In this document: one piece after another, positions 10,591 through 61,839 of the stretch | Numbering within the stretch: position 1 is the first letter of the stretch | How the letters are laid out: every line of letters begins with the position of its first letter | Assembly: GCA_964599215.1 (NCBI GenBank) | Contig: CAZRDV010000001.1 | Span: forward strand, 55,615 to 119,614 | Direction of reading: 5' to 3' | DNA: 64,000 bases | From: an uncultured archaeon | Lineage (GTDB): Archaea; Aenigmatarchaeota; Aenigmatarchaeia; GW2011-AR5 | Program-made: the position numbers and the translations under genes | Notes under the pieces: generated by a model | Told to the model about the DNA's origin: nothing | The model's input: the letters and a program-made list of their open reading frames with translations, nothing else | Databases searched by the model: none

Positions 10591-11724
10591 ATGCTTGTAA
10601 AGGACCTGATGAATAAGAATGTTGTCTACTGTGAACCTGATGAATCAGTAAGCCAGGCGTTGGGCCTGATGAAAAAATATAAGGTACATCAGTTGCCTAT
10701 TATAAAAGACGGTGAACTGACAGGAATCTTGATATTAAACAAGATCATCACCAGGGAGATAGACCCTCTAAAAACCAAGATATCAACTTTAATGATACCT
10801 TCTCCTAGATTAAGTCCTGATGCTTCTTCAGAGGATGCAATAAAATTACTCCTGGGTTCAAACCTCAGGGCAGTTCCTGTTTTCGATTCCAAACTCAGGG
10901 GAATGATATCTGAACAGGACCTGATGAAGGCTGTTAAGGCTGAAGACAAAATAGCTGTTGAGAAGTGTTGCTATATCGAAGAGGATAGTAATATAGGAAA
11001 GGTCAAGAGCCTTATGATACACAAGAACGTATCAAGGGTTCCTGTTGTAAAGAACGGTAAGTTCATAGGGGTCATTGGCACGCTTGACCTGATAAAGGTC
11101 TTGGAAGGTAAAAGAAGATTTGAGGCACGGCACGGCAGATTAAAAGACAGTGGATACAAAGAGGGCCACAGGGCTCATATTGATAAAATTTCTGTCAGTG
11201 CTGTTATGAGAGAACCGGTTATCCTAAAAGCTGATTATAGTAGCAGCGAGGTTGTTGAATTATTAAAAGAGAATGAAGAGGTTCTGATAGAAAACGGTGC
11301 TCTTGGCCTGATAACAGCAAAGGATATACTAAGGTCAACTGTAAAGCCAAGCAGTTTTTCTTATGTCCAGATAACAGGCATAACAGATGAAGGTGCAATT
11401 GTAACTGATAAAATACATCAGGCAGCTTCAGAATTGGTACAAAGGCTTTCCAGATCAGTAGAGCTGCAGCCAATGAAGATACATATAAAGAAACACAAGA
11501 AGCTAGGGCCAAAAACCAAATATTCTTTGCATATAGAATTGCCTACCTCTCTTGGTCTGTTTGTTTCAACAAAAACACACGGGGTTGGGAAGACCTATGC
11601 TGATCTGCCTACACTTGTTCAGAAAGCTATGAATAATCTTGAGAAGGAGATAAGAAAGAAAATAGAAAAGGGTAGGAGAACAGAAAAGAGAAGGGTTTCT
11701 TCAAAAAGATTAGGAAAAGAGTAG
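10591..11724 (+). CDS. CBS-domain protein (four CBS repeats plus a basic C-terminal tail)
   Basis: Repeated CBS-like segments (VHQLPIIKDGELTGIL; RAVPVFDSKLRGMISEQDL; SRVPVVKNGKFIGVIG). Start moved to an internal Met to avoid overlap with endA. Confidence 0.55.
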   Translation: MLVKDLMNKNVVYCEPDESVSQALGLMKKYKVHQLPIIKDGELTGILILNKIITREIDPLKTKISTLMIPSPRLSPDASSEDAIKLLLGSNLRAVPVFDSKLRGMISEQDLMKAVKAEDKIAVEKCCYIEEDSNIGKVKSLMIHKNVSRVPVVKNGKFIGVIGTLDLIKVLEGKRRFEARHGRLKDSGYKEGHRAHIDKISVSAVMREPVILKADYSSSEVVELLKENEEVLIENGALGLITAKDILRSTVKPSSFSYVQITGITDEGAIVTDKIHQAASELVQRLSRSVELQPMKIHIKKHKKLGPKTKYSLHIELPTSLGLFVSTKTHGVGKTYADLPTLVQKAMNNLEKEIRKKIEKGRRTEKRRVSSKRLGKE

Positions 11725-33684: not shown

Positions 33685-34065
33685 ATGAAAATAAAAGGAC
33701 AAGCAGCCATGGAGTACCTCATGACATACGGCTGGGCTATAATTATTATAATTGTGGCTGTAGCTGCTCTTTATGCCATGGGTGTATTCAATCTAGGAGG
33801 GAGTACAGTACCTTGTTCACCGTGTTTCAGCTACTTTGCATTCATAGACTACGCTAACGATACACTTAAAATCAGAAACGGGGCTTACGATATTCAGTCC
33901 ATGACTATCGATACAGGAACACTGAGTACATCAACACCAAGCCCAGGTAACGATATAACCGTTACAGGGTTAGCAGGAACAGGTGACTTGACCCTTACAA
34001 TAACATACAACCTTACATCTTCTGGTTTGGTCCACACGGATTCAGCAACCATACACAGGGGATAA
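33685..34065 (+). CDS. Type IV pilin with class III signal peptide (Q+1/E+5 type)
   Basis: MKIKG|QAAMEYLMTYGWAIIIIIVAVAALYA has basic residues, Gly at -1, Gln at +1 and Glu at +5. Solitary gene, convergent with the pilus operon. Confidence 0.65.
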   Translation: MKIKGQAAMEYLMTYGWAIIIIIVAVAALYAMGVFNLGGSTVPCSPCFSYFAFIDYANDTLKIRNGAYDIQSMTIDTGTLSTSTPSPGNDITVTGLAGTGDLTLTITYNLTSSGLVHTDSATIHRG

Positions 34066-34126: not shown

Positions 34127-35110
34127 TTAGAACATAGTACCGAACATACTTATAAGAACAGTTTTTGAAAGGAAGTATATTCCTAAGCCTAGGAAAAGCA
34201 ATATGGGAATGAATTTCAGCCCTGATCTCTCTGAACCCTCCTGCACCAGGCCTATGAGCATACCACCGAAAATAGATGTGATTAGAATAGCCAAGATAGA
34301 GTAGAGATTCAGGAATTCTGAATCAATTTCAGTGCTACTGAAGCTGATAAACGGGGCGTTGCCAGGAATGTTTTCTGTATCCATTCCCCCTGTTATCTCC
34401 CCCATGCTTGTGACAAGAAACCCTGATACCGAGTATAAGAGCGGTGCGCCTATTCCAGCCGCGAAGAAGATAAATATAACGTACATCATAACTATGGCGC
34501 TAACCTCTTTTCTCATGGTTTTTGTCTGCCTTATATCCTCTGCAAGGCTATCCAACAGGCTTGGAAGATTTCCGCCTTTTAGGAGTCCTTCTGCTAGCAG
34601 GTCCATGCTTCTTCTCAGGGCATTTGAATTGAATTTATCAACCAGCCTTTTGAGTGCGGTTTCTGCTGATTCTCCTGATATGGTCTCTTTTGCTGCCTGT
34701 TTGATTTCTGTCTCCAGTTGACCGAATTCAGGTCTTGCTGAGAGCAGCAAGGCCTTATCAATGGTGAAACCTGAACGAATATTGGATGAAAGGAGCCTTA
34801 AGAAATCAGGAATTATGTCTTCTACAAACTTTGTTCTGCTGTCAGTCTTTATGATCAAAACAGAGTGAATCAGAATCCCAAATAAAATAAAAATAACTAA
34901 AAAAACCGGCAGAACAAGGCTGCTGGCTATTATGCCTAAAAAATACAGAACAAGACTTATTAAACCAAATATAATGCCGTAAAAGACGAAAATACCGACA
35001 AATTTCTCAGCTGGCATGGATACCTTTGAATATATCAAATACCTCTTGATCCATCCCTTGTAGGAGGATGGTGCAAACCTGTACAATCTGTTATAAATTC
35101 TATACCTCAA
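34127..35110 (-). CDS. TadC/FlaJ-like T2SSF-domain membrane protein (pilus platform subunit)
   Basis: N-terminal TM pair, cytoplasmic T2SSF-like helical domain, C-terminal TM bundle. Last gene of the operon. Confidence 0.7.
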   Translation of the reverse strand: MRYRIYNRLYRFAPSSYKGWIKRYLIYSKVSMPAEKFVGIFVFYGIIFGLISLVLYFLGIIASSLVLPVFLVIFILFGILIHSVLIIKTDSRTKFVEDIIPDFLRLLSSNIRSGFTIDKALLLSARPEFGQLETEIKQAAKETISGESAETALKRLVDKFNSNALRRSMDLLAEGLLKGGNLPSLLDSLAEDIRQTKTMRKEVSAIVMMYVIFIFFAAGIGAPLLYSVSGFLVTSMGEITGGMDTENIPGNAPFISFSSTEIDSEFLNLYSILAILITSIFGGMLIGLVQEGSERSGLKFIPILLFLGLGIYFLSKTVLISMFGTMF

Positions 35111-35981
35111 TGGAAGGCCTCCTGTTCTTTATTATTCCGATGAAAGAAAACTGGAATACAATCAAAATAAGCAAGAGTAAAAAGAATATTGTTCTTGTTA
35201 TAGGGAACCCTGAAAATGAGGATATTATAATAAGAAAGGTAGTACCGAGCGAGGGTATGACCACGGCAAGCATCATGTACATCATTGCCATTGGGTTAAG
35301 CTGTGATCCGTATTTACGTATTGCTATTCTCTGTTCACTTGAAACATTATTAACAATGCTCTCAAGAGTGCTTCCTAGATCGGTACCTGACCTCATGGAA
35401 TTGGTTATCTGCCATATCGCCCTTCTGAAATGAAGAGACGGATTCTTTAATGCAAGTTCTTCCAGGGCAGTGTCTTCAGGCATACCAGTCGAGATTTTTT
35501 TGGTGCATATGGCAATTTCATCGGAGAGGGCACCATAGTTCTGTTTAGCGACGGAAACAAGCGAATCAAACAAAGAAACTCCTGATTTCACCTGTATGGT
35601 CAGGTGCCTTAAGCCATACAGAATATTTTTTTCCAGTTCTTTAACCTTTCTTGTAATCATAAGTTTCGGGTAAAGAAGTACATAAATAAAAGCTAGCAGG
35701 GAGACGCTGATAGCAGTTAGAAAAGATATGAATAAGAAATTAAGTTCAAGTATCTTCCCAAGGGTAAGGAATGATATTAATAAAAGGAAAAACCAGAAAA
35801 TTGATGTGATGAAGGCAACAGAGGCATACTCTCTTGCATCAATATCTATTTCAGCCTGTTTTAAGTACATATTAAGGGATGAGTGTTTTACTATCTTGTC
35901 CCCTATTCTTGTGAATCTTCTAGCTAACCTAAATATCTTTTCTAGAGGAAATGGAACAAAGGGAATTTTCTTCAATTTCAT
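35100..35981 (-). CDS. TadB/FlaJ-like T2SSF-domain membrane protein (second platform subunit)
   Basis: Same single-domain architecture as 34127..35110, overlapping it by 11 nt. Split platform as in bacterial TadB/TadC. Confidence 0.7.
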   Translation of the reverse strand: MKLKKIPFVPFPLEKIFRLARRFTRIGDKIVKHSSLNMYLKQAEIDIDAREYASVAFITSIFWFFLLLISFLTLGKILELNFLFISFLTAISVSLLAFIYVLLYPKLMITRKVKELEKNILYGLRHLTIQVKSGVSLFDSLVSVAKQNYGALSDEIAICTKKISTGMPEDTALEELALKNPSLHFRRAIWQITNSMRSGTDLGSTLESIVNNVSSEQRIAIRKYGSQLNPMAMMYMMLAVVIPSLGTTFLIIISSFSGFPITRTIFFLLLLILIVFQFSFIGIIKNRRPSIEV

Positions 35982-37507
35982 ATGCTCTCCAAATAGTATT
36001 TTGGGATAATTTCATCCGCATTCTTTTTGTTTTTTATGAGTTTCAGAACATTTTCAGGATCCTGATAATATTCGGAGATAACAAAACCGACGCCGTTTAC
36101 AGTATTAACCTTGTTCCTAACAAGCCAGTCGAGTATGACCTGCTTTGCTTTCAGGTCTTTCTGGATTTCAATTTCTGTCATCCCGCCATAAGACTTCAGC
36201 TTTTCCATCAGCTTGATGCTCTCTTTATATTTTATTATTTCGTCTTTCAATGGGTCCCATTTGAAAAGAACCCTTAACTCTTCTTTAGCCTTTTCCTCAC
36301 CTGTCGCTATGGTTGGGAGCATTTCCACTACCTCGTAGATTCTTCTTATGCCTTTTCTCCTGTCTCTGAACATGACTATCAGTAAATCTAATGATTCCAG
36401 GAGCGGCTCTGGCACGGATATCGGTGCGTTTACAAGCCTTCTGAATGTTTGTTCCGCAGTATCTGCATGCAGTGTAGAATAGACGCTATGGCCGGTGTGC
36501 ATTGCTTCAAAAAGAACTTCTGCTTCTTCTGCTCTTCTTATTTCGCCTACAACTATCCTGTCAGGCCTCATTCTAAGGCTGTTTACCAAAAGGTCTAGCA
36601 TACCTATCCCGCCCTTTCCTTCTGGATTTGGTTCTCTTGTTGTCAGTGGTACCCAGTGCAAGAAATCAGGCAGATTTACTTCTCGCGTGTCTTCTATGCT
36701 TATTATACGCTGATTTGGCGGTATGAAAGGCATTAGTGTGTTGAGAAAGGAGGTTTTGCCAGTTGCAGTGCCGCCAGAAACTATCATGTTCATCTCAAAT
36801 TCAATAGCCAGCCAGAGCAGTGCTGTTATTTGTGATGATGTTGTTTTGTGTTCAATTAGATCGGTAATGGTCCACGGCTTCCTTCTAAACATTCTTATTG
36901 ATATAGTATTACCTACAGTGGAGATTGGAAAAAGTGTTGCATTAACCCTGTCACCGCTGATTAGGTGTGCATCAAGCAGAGGGTGCATGGTTGTTATCTG
37001 TCTTCCAACCTTTCTTCCTATGGATGATGCATAGTTTAAGATGTTGGCTTCGCTGTCAATGGTAATGTTTGTCTTAAGCCAGCCGTATTGTTTATGATAA
37101 ACCCATACAGGGCTTTTTGATGAATTGACAACTATTTCCTCAAGCCTACCATCTGCCAATAACATTTCAATGTTTCCTAATCCAAGCATCTCGTGAACCA
37201 AAGAGGTTGCTAAAAAGTTCTCTTCTAGCTCAGTTATTCCGAAGAGCTTTTCTCTTATAATTTTAACCCCACGTGAGTATAACTTCGCTTTCATTTCTTC
37301 TAGGGCCTGTGGATCCAATAATTCATGTGTATTGATTTGTAATTTATTGATGATTTCTTCCTTTGCTTCATCAAGCAGCGCAAGCGTCCCTTCCTCCAGT
37401 TTTGGCATTTTTACAAAGTATATGGGAACAAAATCATGCTTGTCTTTTTTTATCTCTACTTCAACTTTGATTCTGTCAGCCGAAAACGAATATTTGTCTA
37501 TCATCAT
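35978..37507 (-). CDS. Type II/IV secretion system ATPase (FlaI/TadA/VirB11 family)
   Basis: Walker A GGTATGKTSFLNTL, Asp box IEDTREV, Walker B/His box RMRPDRIVVGEIR..HTGH. 509 aa with a long N-terminal domain. Confidence 0.9.
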   Translation of the reverse strand: MMIDKYSFSADRIKVEVEIKKDKHDFVPIYFVKMPKLEEGTLALLDEAKEEIINKLQINTHELLDPQALEEMKAKLYSRGVKIIREKLFGITELEENFLATSLVHEMLGLGNIEMLLADGRLEEIVVNSSKSPVWVYHKQYGWLKTNITIDSEANILNYASSIGRKVGRQITTMHPLLDAHLISGDRVNATLFPISTVGNTISIRMFRRKPWTITDLIEHKTTSSQITALLWLAIEFEMNMIVSGGTATGKTSFLNTLMPFIPPNQRIISIEDTREVNLPDFLHWVPLTTREPNPEGKGGIGMLDLLVNSLRMRPDRIVVGEIRRAEEAEVLFEAMHTGHSVYSTLHADTAEQTFRRLVNAPISVPEPLLESLDLLIVMFRDRRKGIRRIYEVVEMLPTIATGEEKAKEELRVLFKWDPLKDEIIKYKESIKLMEKLKSYGGMTEIEIQKDLKAKQVILDWLVRNKVNTVNGVGFVISEYYQDPENVLKLIKNKKNADEIIPKYYLESI

Positions 37508-38295
37508 ACCCTCCTCAAAACAGGCTTGCCTATGGCAGGATAGTCTATTTTTATAAGCCCGTGCTCTTCCAGTATCCTTGCCAGTTCTTCTATATGAGCT
37601 TCTTTCATTCCTGTTTCCTGTGCGATCTTTCCTATGCTGACCTTTGTTGTCACCATGTTCAATATCTTGTCTATATCAGTTTCTATTACGTTCCCCATTT
37701 CTTTTTGCATCACATCGAAAAACAGTCTCATTATACCTTTCATCACGTCTGTTCTGGTAGCTATGCCTGTTAAAGACCCCTTATTATTCACTACAGCCAG
37801 TCTTTCTGCATTGTTTTTATTTATCGTCTTTACCGCCTGGTTCAGGGTGTCGTCTTCCCTTACGGTAAATGGTTTGCGCATAACATCTCGGATAATGGTG
37901 CACCCCATGGCTTTTATGTCTTTGACGGTAATATCGTTTTTGCCCAATATTTTCAGTATGTCTGACTTGTTGATAATACCTACCAATTTGTTTCTGGATA
38001 GAACAGGGGCGCCATCAATCTTATCCCTGAAGAACATGTCTGCAGCGTTTCCTAGGTTGTCCTTTTCATCTAGCGTCTTCGGAGCTGGTACCATGATGTC
38101 CCTTATTTTTACAGTACCTATAATTATCTTATTCGTTACTGCCTTTACCCGCCTCTTCCTCGAAGCTGCAATATTGTCCAGTGTTTGCTTTGCTACTTTC
38201 TTTTGTGATTTTATTTTCATCTTTTTTTTACCAGCCTTTGGTGTCCTGTTTTTCATTTTGTTAACCTCCTTTTTCAATGATAATTTCTTAGCCAT
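37504..38295 (-). CDS. CBS-pair protein with C-terminal winged-helix domain, embedded in the pilus operon
   Basis: Lys-rich N-terminus, two CBS motifs (IMVPAPKTL..; VIRDVMRKPFTV..), C-terminal helix-turn-helix-like IGKIAQETGMKEAHIEELARILEEHGLIKI. ATGA overlap with the ATPase gene. Confidence 0.65.
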   Translation of the reverse strand: MAKKLSLKKEVNKMKNRTPKAGKKKMKIKSQKKVAKQTLDNIAASRKRRVKAVTNKIIIGTVKIRDIMVPAPKTLDEKDNLGNAADMFFRDKIDGAPVLSRNKLVGIINKSDILKILGKNDITVKDIKAMGCTIIRDVMRKPFTVREDDTLNQAVKTINKNNAERLAVVNNKGSLTGIATRTDVMKGIMRLFFDVMQKEMGNVIETDIDKILNMVTTKVSIGKIAQETGMKEAHIEELARILEEHGLIKIDYPAIGKPVLRRV

Positions 38296-38348
38296 AAATC
38301 ACCACCTTTTCTTATTCTATTATAATTTTCCATATATTAATTCTTCTT

Positions 38349-39611
38349 TTAGATTAATAACTCTGATACACCATATATCGCATGGTGCGTGCTTCCTAGC
38401 GAGGTTATGTTATCTATTCTGAATGTAGGGTCTAGGCCCTTTACAGCATAGCCGTTTATCACATCGTTAGAAAAGTAAAGGTAATCTATATTTGTCTGTT
38501 GGTTTTTTATATCAAGGTCCAGTAACAGTAAGTATACCTTGTTAACAAAGCTTTCTAGTCCTATCGTATAATTTGTCTGGTTTGCGTACTTTTCCTGCAC
38601 TTCTAAGGAGCCTTCAAGTCGGTCAAGAAAACTCGCACCGACAGTGCTGGTGTAATAAACTGAATTCTCTGTATGATTCTTAAGTGTGTCTATAAACCAG
38701 ACCCTGCCTTTATCCCCGTCAACAAGGAGGTTTGTACTGTTTTCTATAAGAACCGTTGCGCCAGATGCATTGTAGACGTATGTATTTGTTGCCCCTGGGC
38801 TGACAGTTTCCTCGGATACAATTCCGAGGAATTGGTTAACTGTAGGGAGAGGGATAAGGGAGGCGTCGTCTGTAACCAGAATTTTTTCATCTTTATCTGG
38901 AACATTTAAAATCTCGGCCATGGATGAAGCTGGTATTACAACACCCTGTCCGTACACCCAGTTGCTGTTACCCATGCTATCTATGAGAAGTTCGGTATAG
39001 TTTTCATACCCAGCCTTTGCTATAAGATTGGTAGCCCTTCCTATAGTATTCAAAGGGTAAGTAGGATCTTCAAACCCCTCTATAGAAGTTAGATGATTGA
39101 GTGTTTCATCTCTGTTCAGGCTTGCAGTACCTCCTTTATCAGAGATGTTTATATTCATTACTCCGGTTGTAACCAGATTCCAGCTGTCATAGGGTTTTAC
39201 TTCAAAATTAGTAATGATTATGTTAATGTTATAGCCCTTGGTATCTCCTACATTTTTTATTTGAGCTATCCAGTCTGGAAGTGTATTGTTCTCCATCAGG
39301 CTTTGTGGTGTAGAATGCAGAGTACCATTCCAAGCTAGTTCTGCAAGGCTTTCCTGAGAATTGTTCAGGGAAACGCCTTCTGATACGATGGAACTTATGC
39401 ATACAGAGATTGCCCTTTTTGTTATGATGTCTGATGCCTTGTTGACATCCCTTACTATGCCTTCGTACATCTTGTACATGTCGTTTAACCTAGCTTCAAT
39501 AGAAATCTGTTCCCTTTTATGATGAACAAGGCCCTTCTGTATTTCTATCATACTAAGAAGTGTTATTGTTAACGAAATCAATATTAAACTGAACATAATG
39601 CCCTTTTTCAT
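38349..39611 (-). CDS. Secreted pilin-like glycoprotein with class III-type signal
   Basis: Internal start MKKG|IMFSLILISLTITLL chosen (the ORF opens at 39656). Many N-x-S/T sequons. 4-nt overlap with the vWA gene. Confidence 0.5.
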   Translation of the reverse strand: MKKGIMFSLILISLTITLLSMIEIQKGLVHHKREQISIEARLNDMYKMYEGIVRDVNKASDIITKRAISVCISSIVSEGVSLNNSQESLAELAWNGTLHSTPQSLMENNTLPDWIAQIKNVGDTKGYNINIIITNFEVKPYDSWNLVTTGVMNINISDKGGTASLNRDETLNHLTSIEGFEDPTYPLNTIGRATNLIAKAGYENYTELLIDSMGNSNWVYGQGVVIPASSMAEILNVPDKDEKILVTDDASLIPLPTVNQFLGIVSEETVSPGATNTYVYNASGATVLIENSTNLLVDGDKGRVWFIDTLKNHTENSVYYTSTVGASFLDRLEGSLEVQEKYANQTNYTIGLESFVNKVYLLLLDLDIKNQQTNIDYLYFSNDVINGYAVKGLDPTFRIDNITSLGSTHHAIYGVSELLI

Positions 39612-42229
39612 TTTTCCCACATCAAAACTTTTATCAGGCTTGGCCCCCATAGCCATCTCAAGCCTTTTAGATTCTTGGTTTCAGTAGCTATATTCCCTTC
39701 TCCTGCCTCCACATAGTCGCTTATTTCATTCTCAAGCCTTTGTATTGCATCAGCTGTTGCTGATTCATAACTGTCTAACATATCACCGTATCCTACTGAA
39801 CCACTTACCCTTATAGTATAGATGATTCTGTTGTCTGGAGATCCGCCCGTAGCATTGCTCGGCTCTACGCCGGTTCCAATCCTTACAGAGTTGTTTCCTG
39901 AGCTTATGTAATCTAAGGGTATCTGAACTATGTATGGATCTCCAAGGCTCTGGTAATCAACAATATAATCACCGAGCCAGTATATACCTGTCCAGTCGAT
40001 TAAAGGATTATTCACATACACGCGATCTGTCCAGAATTCTGAAGAATAGGATGTAATCTTAGCATCAGCTATTCTCACTTTCTCTGATACATTGAACCAC
40101 CCTTCTTTATATGGAATATCTATGGTGTCACCTGTGAAGTTTCTAAATCTTGCAGTTTCACGTGTCAGGGAGATCTCTCCGTATTCATACGGTAGTATGT
40201 TGGGTGTATAATCAAACCCTATATAAGAATCCGGATAAAGGATGTTTCCTGCTGAGATGTTACCGTCTATAGTTATTACCTGTGCCTTGTATCGTATCAC
40301 TATATTCTCAGCTATACGGCGGTATATCTCTCTCAGTTCTTCTGAATCAGCACTGGCGTAGTAAAGTCCTTCTCCACAACTTGCAATTGACCTCAGGGTC
40401 CAGTTTGCGTTTGGACAGCTTGCTACAGGACCAAATCCTATAGAGTGCACCACTGCGTCCAGATCGTTATGAACCCTGCAGGAAGAGTAATTTGCATTTT
40501 GCATTGCACCATTGCAGCTATTACCAGTGCAATCTGATGCACTGCCGAAACAGTCTGTGAATTGTGATGCTGTACTGGTTCCTGTTGAATTACAGCTTAT
40601 ACAGAAAAATAAGAACCAATCAGCGCAGCCGCAGCATGCAGAAGGAATTCCGTCAGACATAACAATTATATATTTTTCCCTGGAGGAGTTGCTGTAGGTA
40701 TTCAGGATATTGTATGCCCTGTTGATTGCACAACAGATGCAGGTGCCTCCTGAAGGCTCTTCTGGATAACCATCAATATGAGTTATTAATTCTTCTCTTG
40801 TTGAACCAAGGTCAGGCGTGTATACATAAGCATCGGAATTAAAGCCGACCAGTCCCATTCTATTGCCTGTGACATTCATGATGATGTTGATGAATTCTTT
40901 GTCAAGGCATCTGGCCAGGCTTATTCTGCTTGTGTTTGAGCTGTTTATTTCTGGATCACCACAATCTGAAATTACATTACCGTCATCGCTGCTGTTCATC
41001 TTCCAGTTCATACTTCCTGAAAGGTCTGTTATAAGAATAACATCTGCTTGCCCTTGTTTTATAAAGAGTGGTGATCCAGGTTCCAATCCAAACCTTATTG
41101 GTATTGTTTCTTCACTAAGATGTTCGTAATCCAATCCTGTTAAGGCAAGACTAGAATTTATTTCTGTGTTGTTCAGAAAAACGGTCTGTTCTCCTGAGGC
41201 ATTGCTCTTATAGACAGTTGCATTACCGATTGTAAATAAGAGGGTTGCATTTTCTATGTTGTTTAGATAGTGCAGGGATGCATTCATAGAACTTATGTTT
41301 CCTTGGACATAGAAAGACGAATACAGATTAATAAGTCCGTGTATACCTGGGAAATAGTACCTGCTGTTTGGTTTATCAGTAATCATCTCAGAGGTGTTGT
41401 AGCTGACCCTGAGGTATCCGCCGCCTATATAACTCCCGTTTCCTGTAAAGTTGATGTTGATTATATTGTCGCCAGAATTAAAATTATCTAGGTAGCTATA
41501 ATTGATGTTCCATGTGTCTGCTGTCATGTTTCCGTCACCAGAAGATTTAGTATAGAAGCCTGAATCCTGGTTGTTTATGTACAAGCTGAAGTTGTTGCCT
41601 GCATTGAATTCAATATAAGCCTCATTCACAACCTCGATTATTGGCAGAGTTATGATTCTAGTTATGTTTCCTTCTCCGACAAAACCTCCGAAGTATGCAT
41701 AGGCTGATTCTGTCTTACTCTTTATGCTTGTTAGAAATGCCCTTGCAAGGTAACCCTGGGTTGGTTTTCCAACCATGTAACCTGTTTCTATCCTGGCTGA
41801 AACTGCTGTATTTCTCTCTGACAGGCTGCATGAAGAATATATAGATTCATTTTCAAGATAGAGGCCAATACAGAAATCAAGAGTAATCCTTTCCATGACC
41901 TCTTTAGATATATTAAGCGCTATTGACCTGTTGCCGGCGTACCAGAAACTGGCAATCAGGTCTAATATTGTCTTGTTCAGGTCTGCTTCTTTTATGACAT
42001 TCTTCGATACTAAGTTTGCTATGGTCGGCTTATCAATGAAACTAGATGCCTTTAGGTGGGAGATTGCTTCCATGGTGTCATCCGCAATATAGCTTAGCTT
42101 TTCATATTGTCTTTCCTGAAATGTACTTTCTGAACTCCAATAGCTGCCGAACATTAGAATAGATAACAGCAAGATAGACGTCCCTAAGAGAATGTCTAAT
42201 GTAAACACGAATCCTTTTTTCATTTCCAC
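39608..42229 (-). CDS. Large secreted vWA-domain glycoprotein, putative pilus tip adhesin
   Basis: N-terminus MEMKKG|FVFTLDILLG. vWA/MIDAS motifs DLSGSM ... VMSDG at about aa 395-640 with a Cys-rich insert. More than 25 N-glycosylation sequons. 873 aa. Confidence 0.8.
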   Translation of the reverse strand: MEMKKGFVFTLDILLGTSILLLSILMFGSYWSSESTFQERQYEKLSYIADDTMEAISHLKASSFIDKPTIANLVSKNVIKEADLNKTILDLIASFWYAGNRSIALNISKEVMERITLDFCIGLYLENESIYSSCSLSERNTAVSARIETGYMVGKPTQGYLARAFLTSIKSKTESAYAYFGGFVGEGNITRIITLPIIEVVNEAYIEFNAGNNFSLYINNQDSGFYTKSSGDGNMTADTWNINYSYLDNFNSGDNIININFTGNGSYIGGGYLRVSYNTSEMITDKPNSRYYFPGIHGLINLYSSFYVQGNISSMNASLHYLNNIENATLLFTIGNATVYKSNASGEQTVFLNNTEINSSLALTGLDYEHLSEETIPIRFGLEPGSPLFIKQGQADVILITDLSGSMNWKMNSSDDGNVISDCGDPEINSSNTSRISLARCLDKEFINIIMNVTGNRMGLVGFNSDAYVYTPDLGSTREELITHIDGYPEEPSGGTCICCAINRAYNILNTYSNSSREKYIIVMSDGIPSACCGCADWFLFFCISCNSTGTSTASQFTDCFGSASDCTGNSCNGAMQNANYSSCRVHNDLDAVVHSIGFGPVASCPNANWTLRSIASCGEGLYYASADSEELREIYRRIAENIVIRYKAQVITIDGNISAGNILYPDSYIGFDYTPNILPYEYGEISLTRETARFRNFTGDTIDIPYKEGWFNVSEKVRIADAKITSYSSEFWTDRVYVNNPLIDWTGIYWLGDYIVDYQSLGDPYIVQIPLDYISSGNNSVRIGTGVEPSNATGGSPDNRIIYTIRVSGSVGYGDMLDSYESATADAIQRLENEISDYVEAGEGNIATETKNLKGLRWLWGPSLIKVLMWEK

Positions 42230-42693
42230 ACCACAGAATCCAGAAAAACAAAGGTGCTGTTTAATATGCCTGCTCTCTTCACCTTGATAACATCCCTGCT
42301 GTTTGACGGAGTTAAACCGAAATTAAATAATGTTGTGTTTGTCTCGTCGTAAACTAAAAAATAATATTCCAGGTCACCTAAACCAAGCAATTGTTTGGAA
42401 GCGTTGTAACCAATTTCATTTAGGCTGTTCATCTTAGAGTAGTTGAATGCATGGTTATCCTGAAAGCCGAGGCTGATTATGTTGGTCTTATTCCAGTTAT
42501 TTGGTACGCCCTGCCTAAACCAGACATCAGAAGTAAGATATGCTTTTTCTATTAAGTCATCTAAGTACCGTGTTTCGTCTATCTGTGATGTAACGCCTAC
42601 CCATTGTATAAGCAGGATACTAACAACTAAAAAAAATACAAACGATGCTATAATGAAATCGTATGAAAGCTGGGCCTTAAGTAACATAGACAA
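42220..42693 (-). CDS. Pilin-like protein with class III signal
   Basis: MSMLLKA|QLSYDFIIASFVFFLVVSIL has Gln at +1. Sequon-rich soluble part. Confidence 0.5.
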   Translation of the reverse strand: MSMLLKAQLSYDFIIASFVFFLVVSILLIQWVGVTSQIDETRYLDDLIEKAYLTSDVWFRQGVPNNWNKTNIISLGFQDNHAFNYSKMNSLNEIGYNASKQLLGLGDLEYYFLVYDETNTTLFNFGLTPSNSRDVIKVKRAGILNSTFVFLDSVVWK

Positions 42694-43063
42694 CCCCGTT
42701 TATATTTTCAATAAGATTCCAGCCTGTTTTAATTTCGCCTGTAATATTCTTTGTTGAGATTATACAGGCTTTTGATCCATGATCCCAGTCTATAAACACA
42801 GCATAATCACTAACTACTATATCAAAATTGGATACGCCGAAAAGCGTTTCCTCTATATAAAAAGACCGTCTGTATGAATCGCCGAATCTTACTGCTGAAT
42901 TGATTTCAAATGCAGTTCTTTCACAGAGTTTTTCGATTTCTTCGTCTGCTTTTATATTAAAACTCCTTTCCCTGAGTGACATCTCGCCAAAGATAAAGAG
43001 TGTGAACATTACTATCAGAACTGACAGGAGTACCATAAACTCTATAGTCATTTGACCCTTCAT
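42677..43063 (-). CDS. Type IV pilin (Q+1/E+5)
   Basis: MKG|QMTIEFMVLLSVLIVMF has the canonical prepilin N-terminus. 128 aa. Confidence 0.7.
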   Translation of the reverse strand: MKGQMTIEFMVLLSVLIVMFTLFIFGEMSLRERSFNIKADEEIEKLCERTAFEINSAVRFGDSYRRSFYIEETLFGVSNFDIVVSDYAVFIDWDHGSKACIISTKNITGEIKTGWNLIENINGVVYVT

Positions 43064-43464
43064 TCAACCACAGTTATGTTTACAGAATACTTATCAGCAA
43101 TCAGCGCAATGAAGTAGCATCCGTTGTTTGTCGGCACAGAACCATTTAACATAGGTATCGTATCACTGTAGATGTCCACGATGCCGGCTGATGTCTTTAG
43201 CTTGAATAATACCATGCTGTCTAATAATACCTCTTCCACACCCTCTGGGATACAGACATTTATTGTCAGCCTTGCTGGAGGGCCCTGGGAGTAAACCCAG
43301 TTGGCGCTTTCAGCGATTTTGCTTGCAGCAGCCTTTGCAGATGATATCTTCACATCCTCTTTGTAGCCAAGCAGGTTCTGGTTAGAATAGAGGATAAGTG
43401 GTACGAGTATTGCCAGCGCAAGCCCGATGATTACTAGATATTCAACAGATGCCTGAGCTTTCAT
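43060..43464 (-). CDS. Type IV pilin (Q+1/E+5), first gene of the operon
   Basis: MKA|QASVEYLVIIGLALAILV. 134 aa. 4-nt overlap with the next pilin gene. Confidence 0.7.
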   Translation of the reverse strand: MKAQASVEYLVIIGLALAILVPLILYSNQNLLGYKEDVKISSAKAAASKIAESANWVYSQGPPARLTINVCIPEGVEEVLLDSMVLFKLKTSAGIVDIYSDTIPMLNGSVPTNNGCYFIALIADKYSVNITVVE

Positions 43465-43913
43465 AAATATAGTTATTCTCGCCCTAATAAGAGTTTTATT
43501 TTAAAGTTTTCTGTGCAAATACTAAACTGACGTAGTATTCTGAGTGAGAAGTTAAAACTAACAGCATTATTGATGTCTACTGATCTGCTATATAATATAG
43601 GCCCCCGGTTTAACTCTCACATTTGGGTGTGAGTTCACCTATCTTCTGTAATATATATTTGATTAAGCTTATTATCAATAATATATTATACTATTAATAA
43701 TTAGTATGAAAGATATTTGATGTAATATATATTGTAGTAGATACTACCATGATTATCTCTCACAAAAGAAATATAGGCTTGAAGATATATTTGTCAAATG
43801 ATTCTTAATTACATATCAATCTCAATAGATATTTCTTAGAATATAATATATCTGAAAATTTGGTTATATCTCTCACATAAGAAAATTATTTTGTTAAAAG
43901 TAAGCAAAATAGG
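43465..43913 (-). promoter_or_regulatory. AT-rich upstream region of the pilus operon containing three TCTCTCACA-type motif copies
   Basis: Motifs at about 43611 (actctcacatttgggtgtgag), 43755 (tatctctcacaaaagaaa) and 43868 (tatctctcacataagaaa). Multiple TATA-like tracts. Confidence 0.4.
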
Positions 43914-44450
43914 CTACTCTTCTTGCTTATTTTCATTCTTTTCTACCTTATTTTCTTCGTTTATTGCTTCATTTTGCTCTTCTTTTTCCGGCTTCATGGT
44001 GCGCGCCATCTCTAACATAAGAAGGTCGTCAAAATCCTTTGCAATTCTTCGTGTTTTTCTCATAAATGCCTTTGTTGCTGATTCTACCCTGTCTAAGAGG
44101 CGGTTTACAGTAGGTGCTGTAAGCATATATCCCTTAATAAAATCATTTCCTGATGGTATTTTAACGAATTCCATCAGCCCCAGGGTTCTCCATTTCCTTA
44201 TTTCCTCGTATGTCTGGCTCTGTGATATTGATAATATCTGGGAGATCTGCTCTATTGACAGCGGTATGTTCTCTTTTCTGTATTTTAGCAGCTCCAGGAG
44301 CAGCTTTGAATGGTCTGCCCTGCTCTCTTTTCTTTTAAGACCTAGTCTCCGGACCAGGGCAACAGAAAGGTCGTTTGTTGTTATATTTAGTTTGTTATCA
44401 GGCGGCTCAACTCGTATAAAAACCATATCAGAAAGCTTCTTTTTCGGCAT
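43914..44450 (-). CDS. HTH transcriptional regulator, putative
   Basis: Central helix-turn-helix-like segment (IEQISQILSISQSQTYEEIRKWRTLGLMEF) and acidic Glu/Lys-rich C-terminus. Immediately upstream of the pilus operon on the same strand. Confidence 0.5.
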   Translation of the reverse strand: MPKKKLSDMVFIRVEPPDNKLNITTNDLSVALVRRLGLKRKESRADHSKLLLELLKYRKENIPLSIEQISQILSISQSQTYEEIRKWRTLGLMEFVKIPSGNDFIKGYMLTAPTVNRLLDRVESATKAFMRKTRRIAKDFDDLLMLEMARTMKPEKEEQNEAINEENKVEKNENKQEE

Positions 44451-60850: not shown

Positions 60851-61339
60851 TTAAATGGTTTTCAGCTGGCCTATTTTCTTTTCAAGCTCTTTTCCAGTAG
60901 CCTTCAGGTTAACGAATTCCTTTTTCAGCAAAGGAAGGATATCAGAGAGATAAAAATCATTGAAGGTTCTTGTTACAGGCCCGGTTTTCTTCATTGCTGT
61001 CTGTAAGATGCCCTTGAACCTTATATCCAAGAAACCGTTTGTGGTGCTTTCTCCGTTCAGGTCAAAGATTATCACTGATCTGGTAAATTTGTCTATCTTC
61101 TTCTTTAATTCAAATGAAAGCTCTATCCTCTTTCTTGGTCCGTCTGTTTCATAGATGTTCTTCTTTTCAACAGGCTCGCCAAAATTACTTGCTATTTCCT
61201 TTATCTTAAGCGACAGTAAAAACGGGTCAGGCGTAGATAACCGGATGTTCTCGGAGAATATCTCTTCTGTTATACGCATATTAATTTTTTGTCTGGTTAG
61301 AATAAAAAGTTTGTTAATTAGTCCCTGCACTCTTCGCAC
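60851..61339 (-). CDS. Hypothetical protein
   Basis: 162-aa ORF with no recognisable motif. Confidence 0.4.
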   Translation of the reverse strand: MRRVQGLINKLFILTRQKINMRITEEIFSENIRLSTPDPFLLSLKIKEIASNFGEPVEKKNIYETDGPRKRIELSFELKKKIDKFTRSVIIFDLNGESTTNGFLDIRFKGILQTAMKKTGPVTRTFNDFYLSDILPLLKKEFVNLKATGKELEKKIGQLKTI

Positions 61340-61839
61340 TTGTAGACACCGTCTACCTCCTTGACATCGTCACTGTAGTTTCCGCATACCTCGCATCCTG
61401 AAAAGCCGGTTTCTTCACGCATTCTCAGTGCTCCCATCTTCATCCTCTCCAGTAGTATGTTGAACAGGGCAGGCTCGACCCTCAATATGTCATTATTGGT
61501 TATTATTCCAACAAGCCGGTCTTTATCAAAAACAGGCAGTTTCTCTATTCTCTTTGATACCATAAGCCGTGCTGCATGCTCTATTGTTTTTTTAGGCGAT
61601 ATCTTTATCAGGCTCTTGCTCATTACATCCTTTGCTTTTTTGCCCTTGCCTGATGCTATATGCTTGTATACGATATCACGCGTACTTAGTATGCCGACGA
61701 CTCTGCCTCCGGACATAACAAGAACGGAGCCTATTTTGTACTTTTTCATCATCATTGCTGCTTTTTTTATAGGGTCTGACACACCTATGCTCCTGATTTT
61801 CTTTGTCATCACGTCTTTAACAAGGGCATTGAACTTCAT
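61318..61839 (-). CDS. CBS-pair protein with C-terminal zinc ribbon
   Basis: Two CBS segments and a C-terminal CEVCGN...CEEC. 173 aa. Confidence 0.7.
   Translation of the reverse strand: MKFNALVKDVMTKKIRSIGVSDPIKKAAMMMKKYKIGSVLVMSGGRVVGILSTRDIVYKHIASGKGKKAKDVMSKSLIKISPKKTIEHAARLMVSKRIEKLPVFDKDRLVGIITNNDILRVEPALFNILLERMKMGALRMREETGFSGCEVCGNYSDDVKEVDGVYKCEECRD

Follow-up and report, generated by a model that had tools for sequence, protein, structure and literature searches.

Why does the pilus operon of an uncultured archaeon carry, directly upstream of its assembly ATPase gene, a gene for a CBS pair joined to a winged helix (WH)? The gene in question lies on the minus strand at 37504..38295 of a 64,000-nucleotide stretch (the window) of contig CAZRDV010000001.1, from a member of the Aenigmatarchaeota. 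DPANN archaea are tiny and mostly symbiotic, and pili are prime candidates for host attachment; to our knowledge, the motors of DPANN pili are known from gene lists only. Here we find that the module linked to the ATPase gene is the WH domain, and that the CBS pair is a lineage-specific N-terminal insert.

The gene is an ATG-to-TGA open reading frame (ORF) of 263 amino acids, with homologues at 35-88% identity. It encodes a polybasic, disordered N-terminal tail (codons 1-57, 38125..38295), a CBS pair or Bateman module (codons 58-190, 37726..38124) recognised by Pfam, AlphaFold2 (AF2), Foldseek and residue conservation, and a WH domain (codons 204-263, 37507..37686) supported by AF2, Foldseek, a profile search and a conservation table. 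An earlier reading of the locus from its letters (the sequence-only reading) had proposed this combination of CBS pair and winged helix, and both parts stand. The Pfam hidden Markov model CBS (PF00571) detected the pair in two stretches, far above chance, scoring 88.3 bits where 24 are required (E=4.2e-25), and AF2 predicted a WH fold for the C-terminus. The start codon is supported by the N-terminus MAKK.SLKKEV, which is kept in the alignment of close homologues, and a Shine-Dalgarno-like GGTGGTGA (38299..38306) lies 4 nt 5' of this ATG. At the other end, the stop TGA (37504-37506) overlaps the ATPase start ATG (37505-37507) to form the ATGA at 37504..37507 that the same reading had described, as can be read directly in the sequence; GAGGAGGG at 37509-37516 is a possible ribosome-binding site of the ATPase gene itself. 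A stop/start overlap or very short spacing to the ATPase gene is shared by the window and many of its CBS-WH relatives. The ATPase is a type IV pilus (T4P) assembly protein of the T2SSE family (509 amino acids, 35978..37507, minus strand; PF00437, E=2e-36), and among solved structures it comes closest to A. fulgidus GspE (2OAP, 5e-70), FlaI and CpaF.

Conservation of the WH domain and its gene order

A search with the full-length protein returned only 11 close homologues. In every contig that was long enough the gene stood directly upstream of an ATPase-TadC-TadC unit, down to 35-39% identity, and the loci most similar to the window were labelled Aenigmatarchaeota. The C-terminal domain was the best-conserved part of the homologue alignment, and one protein (P0011) contained it without the CBS pair. 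When a family profile of this 66-amino-acid WH domain was scored against 1.84 billion representative proteins, it matched 2,753 protein clusters at an E limit of 1e-3, of which 685 remained at 1e-10. Its sole match in the window was residues 198-263 of the CBS-WH protein (E=2.7e-35). A word-indexed protein search with the same profile gave 31 mostly short proteins, none of them from a cultivated organism.

Gene order was read in both directions. Starting from the WH domain, we assembled 64 loci from species-representative genomes, retrieved by the domain pattern only and labelled mainly Aenigmatarchaeota, Woesearchaeota and Nanoarchaeota; a CBS pair was present in 22 of them. The next same-strand gene encoded a T2SSE ATPase homologue in 54 of the 62 loci with at least 300 nt downstream, at gaps estimated mostly at -24 to +350 nt. 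Starting from the ATPase, 80 metagenome loci were retrieved by this protein only (49-63% identity), and a same-strand WH gene lay upstream in 74 of the 76 with upstream room. These 74 genes encoded 49 transmembrane (TM)+WH proteins, 14 with another N-terminal extension, 7 CBS+WH proteins and 4 consisting of the WH domain only, the CBS+WH forms accompanying the ATPases nearest to that of the window (56-62% identity). Inversion of the pilin block, as in L001, L004, L023, L036 and L050, did not separate the WH gene from the ATPase gene. Because the adjacency holds from both starting points, the WH gene accompanies this ATPase clade almost without exception. The homologous gene is thus present at related pilus loci. 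The sequence-only reading had suggested a nucleotide-sensing regulator or accessory factor of pilus assembly. An accessory or regulatory factor, as opposed to a chance neighbour, is strongly backed by gene order down to ~35% identity; the emphasis has to shift, however, since it is the WH domain and not the CBS pair that is linked. Two loci with Aenigmatarchaeota-like pilus genes come from records labelled 'Mollicutes bacterium' (L013) and 'Heimdallarchaeota' (L029), possibly mis-binned contigs; the L029 ATPase is 60% identical to that of the window.

The domain occurs in several architectures. Our sample comprised 160 family proteins, namely the listed best matches of the 2,753 together with the close full-length homologues. 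The WH domain carried an N-terminal extension that was neither TM nor CBS in 68, followed a CBS pair in 38, preceded two TM helices in ~26, followed N-terminal TM helices in ~7, made up a short protein by itself in 17 and was repeated five times in one. That one protein (P0012, 657 amino acids) is the top match of the family profile (E=4.5e-31). Typical TM+WH members start with a TM hairpin that a basic linker joins to the WH domain, a layout that places the domain in the cytoplasm. Ten candidates with a mid-protein WH domain were scanned and showed TM-like tails. In a further recurring architecture (L081, L086 and L127) the gene upstream of the ATPase encodes an N-terminal WH domain followed by a charge-rich stretch of 130-240 residues, coiled-coil-like by eye. 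The family's long representatives are CBS proteins whose basic tails are very long. We also considered whether long WH proteins might be ATPase fusions of the 'Rosetta stone' kind, and this was ruled out; those of L067 and L068 give only sub-threshold coiled-coil-type matches. A single fusion of another type was seen among 288 WH proteins: at L026 (6216-7226, plus strand), a C-terminal WH domain (E~1e-7) is joined to a ParA/MinD-like P-loop ATPase (Pfam ParA, E=6e-26), the gene of which is flanked by a CBS-WH gene and that of the pilus ATPase.

Existing family models do not capture the domain: no Pfam or NCBIfam model scored the WH family above threshold. Among 150 listed representatives Pfam found CBS in 29, any single helix-turn-helix (HTH) model in at most 10, HVO_A0114 in 7 and DUF2226 in 4, while the NCBIfam Lrs14 model matched 18, weakly. 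The window protein remained below every Pfam HTH threshold, its best matches being HTH_47 (16.1 bits, threshold 27.1), Rrf2 (16.4, threshold 30) and HTH_IclR (12.5, threshold 22); with NCBIfam, at E up to 0.001, all matches included the CBS region and no HTH-type model appeared. For the C-terminal half of the sequence-only reading, the scan with HTH models thus gave sub-threshold matches only, and it is the AF2 prediction that upholds it. Two AF2 runs gave a canonical H1-S1-H2-H3-S2-wing-S3 topology, with a predicted local distance difference test (pLDDT) score of ~80 for the full-length protein and 86.7 for the domain alone. Foldseek aligned the domain with solved MarR, ArsR, TFE and Z-alpha structures at TM-scores of 0.6-0.79 and E-values of 0.009 or worse. 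Against the PDB, the WH-only model found generic winged helix-turn-helix (wHTH) neighbours (best E=0.009) and no clue to function.

The conserved residues of the domain are more informative. Across 213 unique WH domains the near-invariant positions are T9, D12, E40, E41, W42, L46, E47, E48, H49, Y56, P57, G60 and P62, giving the signature ET.ID ... EE(W/L)..ILEEH ... YP..G.P. At the start of helix 3, column 40 is acidic in 96% and column 41 in 90% of the domains, and column 42 is Trp in 96%; the window protein has Leu at this last position (L237, preceded by E235 and E236). The wing motif, Y-P-x-x-G-x-P, is not basic, and the median net charge of the domain is -1. The basic or polar character looked for in a DNA-reading surface was not found on helix 3 or the wing. 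With Glu-Glu-Trp at what would be the DNA-facing start of helix 3, and a wing built from Pro and Gly, the domain does not look like a DNA reader, for which such residues would be unusual. Because the Glu-Glu-Trp motif and the wing are invariant across phyla, the conservation pattern suggests that the domain faces a conserved protein partner, which fits better than divergent DNA operators.

The CBS pair and the N-terminal tail

AF2 modelled the CBS pair of the window protein (residues 60-190) with pLDDT ~90, and Foldseek aligned it with solved CBS pairs (2EF7, 2P9M) at E=2e-11 and target-normalised TM-scores of 0.81-0.88. When the full-length model was compared with the PDB, only CBS matches were returned and the C-terminus was uninformative. 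Each CBS motif holds a sequence of the ribose-binding type, GIINKSD (106-112) and GIATRTD (177-183), and the pattern G-h-h-T/S-x-x-D is conserved in both: in the homologue alignment G177 and T180 are invariant, and G106, D112 and D183 nearly so. Judged by these motifs, the pair most likely binds an adenosine-containing ligand (ATP, ADP or AMP, S-adenosylmethionine or c-di-AMP), and it probably dimerises.

Solved stand-alone archaeal CBS-pair proteins (MJ0922, ST2348, MJ1225 and MJ0100) share the Bateman fold, with target-normalised TM-scores of 0.8-0.88 and ~26% identity, a level from which the ligand is not transferable. Profile matches reach down to E=1e-31. All alignments with the matched solved chains are confined to the CBS region, and no link to pili is described for any of these chains. 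Ribosome-bound CBS proteins of Methanosarcina (9znf, 9zni) are among the best solved-structure matches of the CBS-WH profile.

The tail that precedes the CBS pair in the window protein contains 22 Lys or Arg and 2 Asp or Glu residues in its 57 codons and is modelled with pLDDT <50. An N-terminal tail of at least 15 amino acids is present in 45 of 65 unique CBS-WH proteins, composed on average of 38% Lys/Arg and 9% Asp/Glu, and in several of them it opens with an amphipathic motif such as ILxWLRKxF. We tentatively propose that the polybasic tail takes the place of the TM hairpin as a peripheral membrane anchor; nucleic-acid binding is equally possible.

A candidate accessory subunit of the pilus motor

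Because the WH gene stands directly upstream of the ATPase gene in nearly every related DPANN pilus locus, we favour an accessory subunit of the motor over an ordinary transcription factor. Our preferred reading, which we consider moderately probable, is that the protein is a membrane-proximal adaptor of the pilus motor to which a sensor of adenosine ligands was added in the Aenigmatarchaeota-like lineage. It would be a cytoplasmic, probably membrane-peripheral accessory subunit of the DPANN-type T4P motor. The WH domain would dock on the ATPase or on the TadC platform through its acidic Glu-Glu-Trp surface rather than bind DNA, and the N-terminal part would act as a variable input or anchor module, a TM hairpin in most lineages and a polybasic tail with a CBS pair in the Aenigmatarchaeota-like one. 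The ligand state of the CBS pair would modulate engagement of the WH domain with the motor, coupling pilus assembly to the energy or second-messenger status of the cell. A bolder version, which we put forward with some doubt, takes the WH domain to be a previously unrecognised, near-universal subunit of the two-platform DPANN T4P motor: a membrane-tethered, ATPase-binding adaptor or stator-like piece, the anchor of which was replaced by the polybasic tail and CBS pair in Aenigmatarchaeota. If so, an adenosine nucleotide or second messenger would act as a direct gate on pilus extension and, through it, on attachment to the host cell.

With its place beside the ATPase gene in 74 of 76 loci, the WH family is a strong candidate for a missing component of the machine. 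The CBS form provides a testable handle on whether the motor is switched by the cellular energy state or a cyclic nucleotide, and the family as a whole is a concrete example in which to examine whether a winged helix gave up binding DNA and came to dock on a protein.

Several observations weigh against a motor subunit. The closest neighbours of the WH domain in sequence and fold are DNA-binding regulators (MarR, ArsR, TrmB and, weakly, Lrs14). The LEExGLI half of helix 3, which we take to be a generic feature of MarR/TrmB-type recognition helices, was not counted as evidence, which leaves the EEW part as the only unusual one. Nucleic-acid binding is conceivable for both the polybasic tail and the basic C-terminal end. 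In loci with a divergent pilin block, the WH gene is placed beside a short shared promoter region, a position that is also typical of autoregulators. A conserved docking site was sought on the ATPase and none was obvious, as its N-terminal 100 amino acids are the least conserved part of that protein. Finally, no ATPase gene adjoins the WH gene in 8 of the 62 WH-anchored loci. Some of these exceptions (L013, L018 and L038) are still beside pilus genes; the others (L035, L067-L069) concern unrelated long proteins with sub-threshold coiled-coil-type matches, or multidomain proteins.

The main rival is a ligand-responsive one-component transcription factor, in which the CBS pair would sense an adenosine ligand and the C-terminal wHTH would bind operators, autoregulating the pilus motor or pilin operons. 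The predicted fold, nearest to MarR/ArsR-type regulators, agrees with such a role, as do the weak scores of some family members against MarR, TrmB, HTH_28 and Lrs14 models and the polybasic tail. NCBIfam holds models of CBS-containing regulators (CcpN, HhpR and SpxR), some of which match the CBS region of the window protein weakly. In several relatives the gene opens the motor operon and is divergent from the pilin operon across an AT-rich spacer of 43-85 nt, and archaeal pilus and archaellum loci are known to hold membrane-bound regulators (PMC4858521). On the other side stand the near-invariant Glu-Glu-Trp at the start of helix 3, the wing that is not basic and the median charge of -1. Residues that read operators normally diverge, whereas these are invariant over genomes labelled Aenigmatarchaeota, Woesearchaeota and Nanoarchaeota. 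Most family members are TM-hairpin proteins, coiled-coil proteins or 70-amino-acid stand-alone domains without an obvious dimerisation module, and the window protein scores below all HTH family thresholds. The linkage is specific to the ATPase gene and not to a promoter position, and no palindrome or operator shared by six divergent intergenic regions was found by eye. Taken together, this evidence makes a transcription factor rather unlikely in our judgement.

The polybasic tail and the winged-helix fold would also suit a protein that is no regulator and that handles nucleic acid on the cytoplasmic side of a pilus-like apparatus, for example during DNA uptake or transfer. Certain T4P-like systems are involved in taking up or exchanging DNA, and most family members are membrane-anchored beside a secretion-type ATPase. 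Against this, the canonical nucleic-acid-binding face is acidic, the full pilin set and the VWA adhesin-like protein encoded in the operon are typical of an adhesive pilus, and no gene for a nuclease, a translocase or a DNA receptor was noticed there; we regard the proposal as improbable. Least credible of all is a generic housekeeping CBS protein that sits in the operon by chance and has no role in the pilus. CBS proteins are common and two more are encoded in the window, but adjacency in both directions (54/62 and 74/76) extends across loci with ATPases only ~50% identical, the gene overlaps the ATPase gene stop to start, and the WH profile matches only this ORF in the window. Conserved gene order effectively refutes such a bystander.

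In the motor-subunit reading that we prefer, the protein would join the known accessory or regulatory partners of type IV filament ATPases. Its closest counterpart in role is FlaH/ArlH, likewise a small cytoplasmic protein of nucleotide-binding type, the gene of which neighbours that of an archaeal type IV filament ATPase (FlaI/ArlI) and which is expected to act on the motor; FlaH interacts directly with FlaI (PMC4858521). The folds are unrelated, as FlaH/ArlH is KaiC-like whereas the CBS-WH protein has a CBS sensor and a proposed WH docking domain. No RecA or KaiC Pfam domain is found in the CBS-WH protein, and the Walker A pattern is absent. The likeness to FlaH drawn in the sequence-only reading can therefore be kept in the sense of a nucleotide-binding accessory protein beside the motor ATPase, and fails for the KaiC/RecA domain and its Walker A motif. 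The FleN/MinD/TadZ ATPases of archaeal T4P and bacterial Tad loci are also accessory regulators in pilus loci (arCOG00589, PMC4858521), and the ParA/MinD-WH fusion of L026 recalls them. The window protein differs in having no P-loop, so that the link runs via the shared WH module only.

The MarR, ArsR, TrmB and Lrs14 regulators resemble the WH domain in wHTH topology (TM-scores of 0.6-0.79) and in weak profile matches to some family members. They differ from it in that the WH domain has an acidic start of helix 3, is C-terminal, is often joined to TM hairpins and scores below their thresholds. Lrs14 regulators control pili and biofilm formation in Sulfolobus, and T4P and archaellum loci never include their genes (PMC4858521), whereas the WH gene is almost always in a T4P locus. 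The 2016 census of archaeal T4P (PMC4858521) associates these loci with FlaH, FleN/MinD, vWA/MoxR, TFIIB and assorted regulators; CBS and HTH go unmentioned in its main text. Its supplements place arCOG00610, with the opposite order of HTH then CBS, beside a prepilin peptidase gene, and arCOG07863 ('C-terminal wHTH') next to a Caldivirga pilin gene. A 2026 preprint (bioRxiv 10.64898/2026.04.22.720090) notes in passing that CBS proteins co-localise with the type IV filament (TFF) subsystems 4B (Thermoproteus tenax) and 4F (Halobacteria), and suggests a regulatory coupling. These are other subsystems and lineages than the DPANN locus described here. The main text of that preprint contains none of the terms 'winged', 'wHTH', 'HTH' or 'helix-turn-helix' and is silent on CBS proteins at DPANN loci, and the WH family is mentioned in neither of the two censuses.

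The pilus operon and other genes in the window

The CBS-WH gene is one of nine co-oriented genes on the minus strand, overlapping or closely spaced, that form a T4P operon. Downstream of the ATPase gene lie two genes for platform proteins of the TadC/T2SSF family, encoding 293 (35100..35981; PF00482, E=3e-17) and 327 amino acids (34127..35110; PF00482, E=2e-16). Upstream, at 38349..39656, a 435-amino-acid protein has the prepilin-like N-terminus KKG|IMFSLILISL in its translation, no Pfam match, and homologues at related loci. Further upstream lies the gene of an 873-amino-acid VWA protein (39608..42229; VWA_2, E=1e-8), also with a prepilin-like N-terminus and conserved at related loci, a candidate adhesin or minor pilin. 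Instead of regulators in the cytoplasm, the 873- and the 435-amino-acid proteins may both be pilin-like adhesins or minor pilins. Three small prepilin-like genes complete the operon (42220-42693, 42677-43063 and 43060-43464), with the N-termini MKAQASVEYL, MKGQMTIEFM and LKAQLSYDF; their Class_IIIsignal Pfam match is weak (18.9 bits, below the cut-off of 23.7), and they are conserved at related loci. The locus thus combines PF00437, two PF00482 proteins and prepilin-like N-termini read from translations, as expected of archaeal T4P, and with T2SSE, two T2SSF/TadC, VWA and prepilin-like neighbours all on the minus strand, the gene is embedded in a pilus operon as had been claimed. A Pfam scan of the nine operon genes revealed no dedicated prepilin peptidase among them. 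A convergent pilin gene of 126 amino acids (MKIKGQAAMEYL..., from its translation) lies at 33685..34065 on the plus strand and has the same position at related loci.

Upstream of the first pilin gene, a 450-nt non-coding region (43465-43913) contains three exact copies of TGTGAGAGWTA (43611, 43754 and 43867, minus strand). The motif occurs nowhere else in the window, where 0.1 copies are expected by chance, and in 0 of 151 related loci; the copies may be operator or promoter repeats of the pilus operon. Directly upstream of this region, a 178-amino-acid ORF (43914-44450, minus strand) has an HTH-like stretch by eye (LSIEQISQILSISQSQTYEEIRKW) and an acidic tail, and matches no Pfam family at an E limit of 0.01. 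This ORF could encode the actual transcription regulator of the pilus operon.

The sequence-only reading had also pointed to two further CBS proteins in the window, and both are present. Its suggestion that CBS modules are expanded here was rejected as unsupported, because three CBS proteins among the ~60 genes of one window do not by themselves show an expansion. The smaller of the two (61318-61839, minus strand) has two CBS motifs followed by a CxxC...CxxC tail resembling a zinc ribbon, and looks like an ordinary archaeal CBS protein. The larger (10546/10591-11724, plus strand) has four CBS motifs and then ~110 residues without a Pfam match. Its gene (10591-11724) adjoins what appears by eye to be a tRNA-splicing endonuclease gene.

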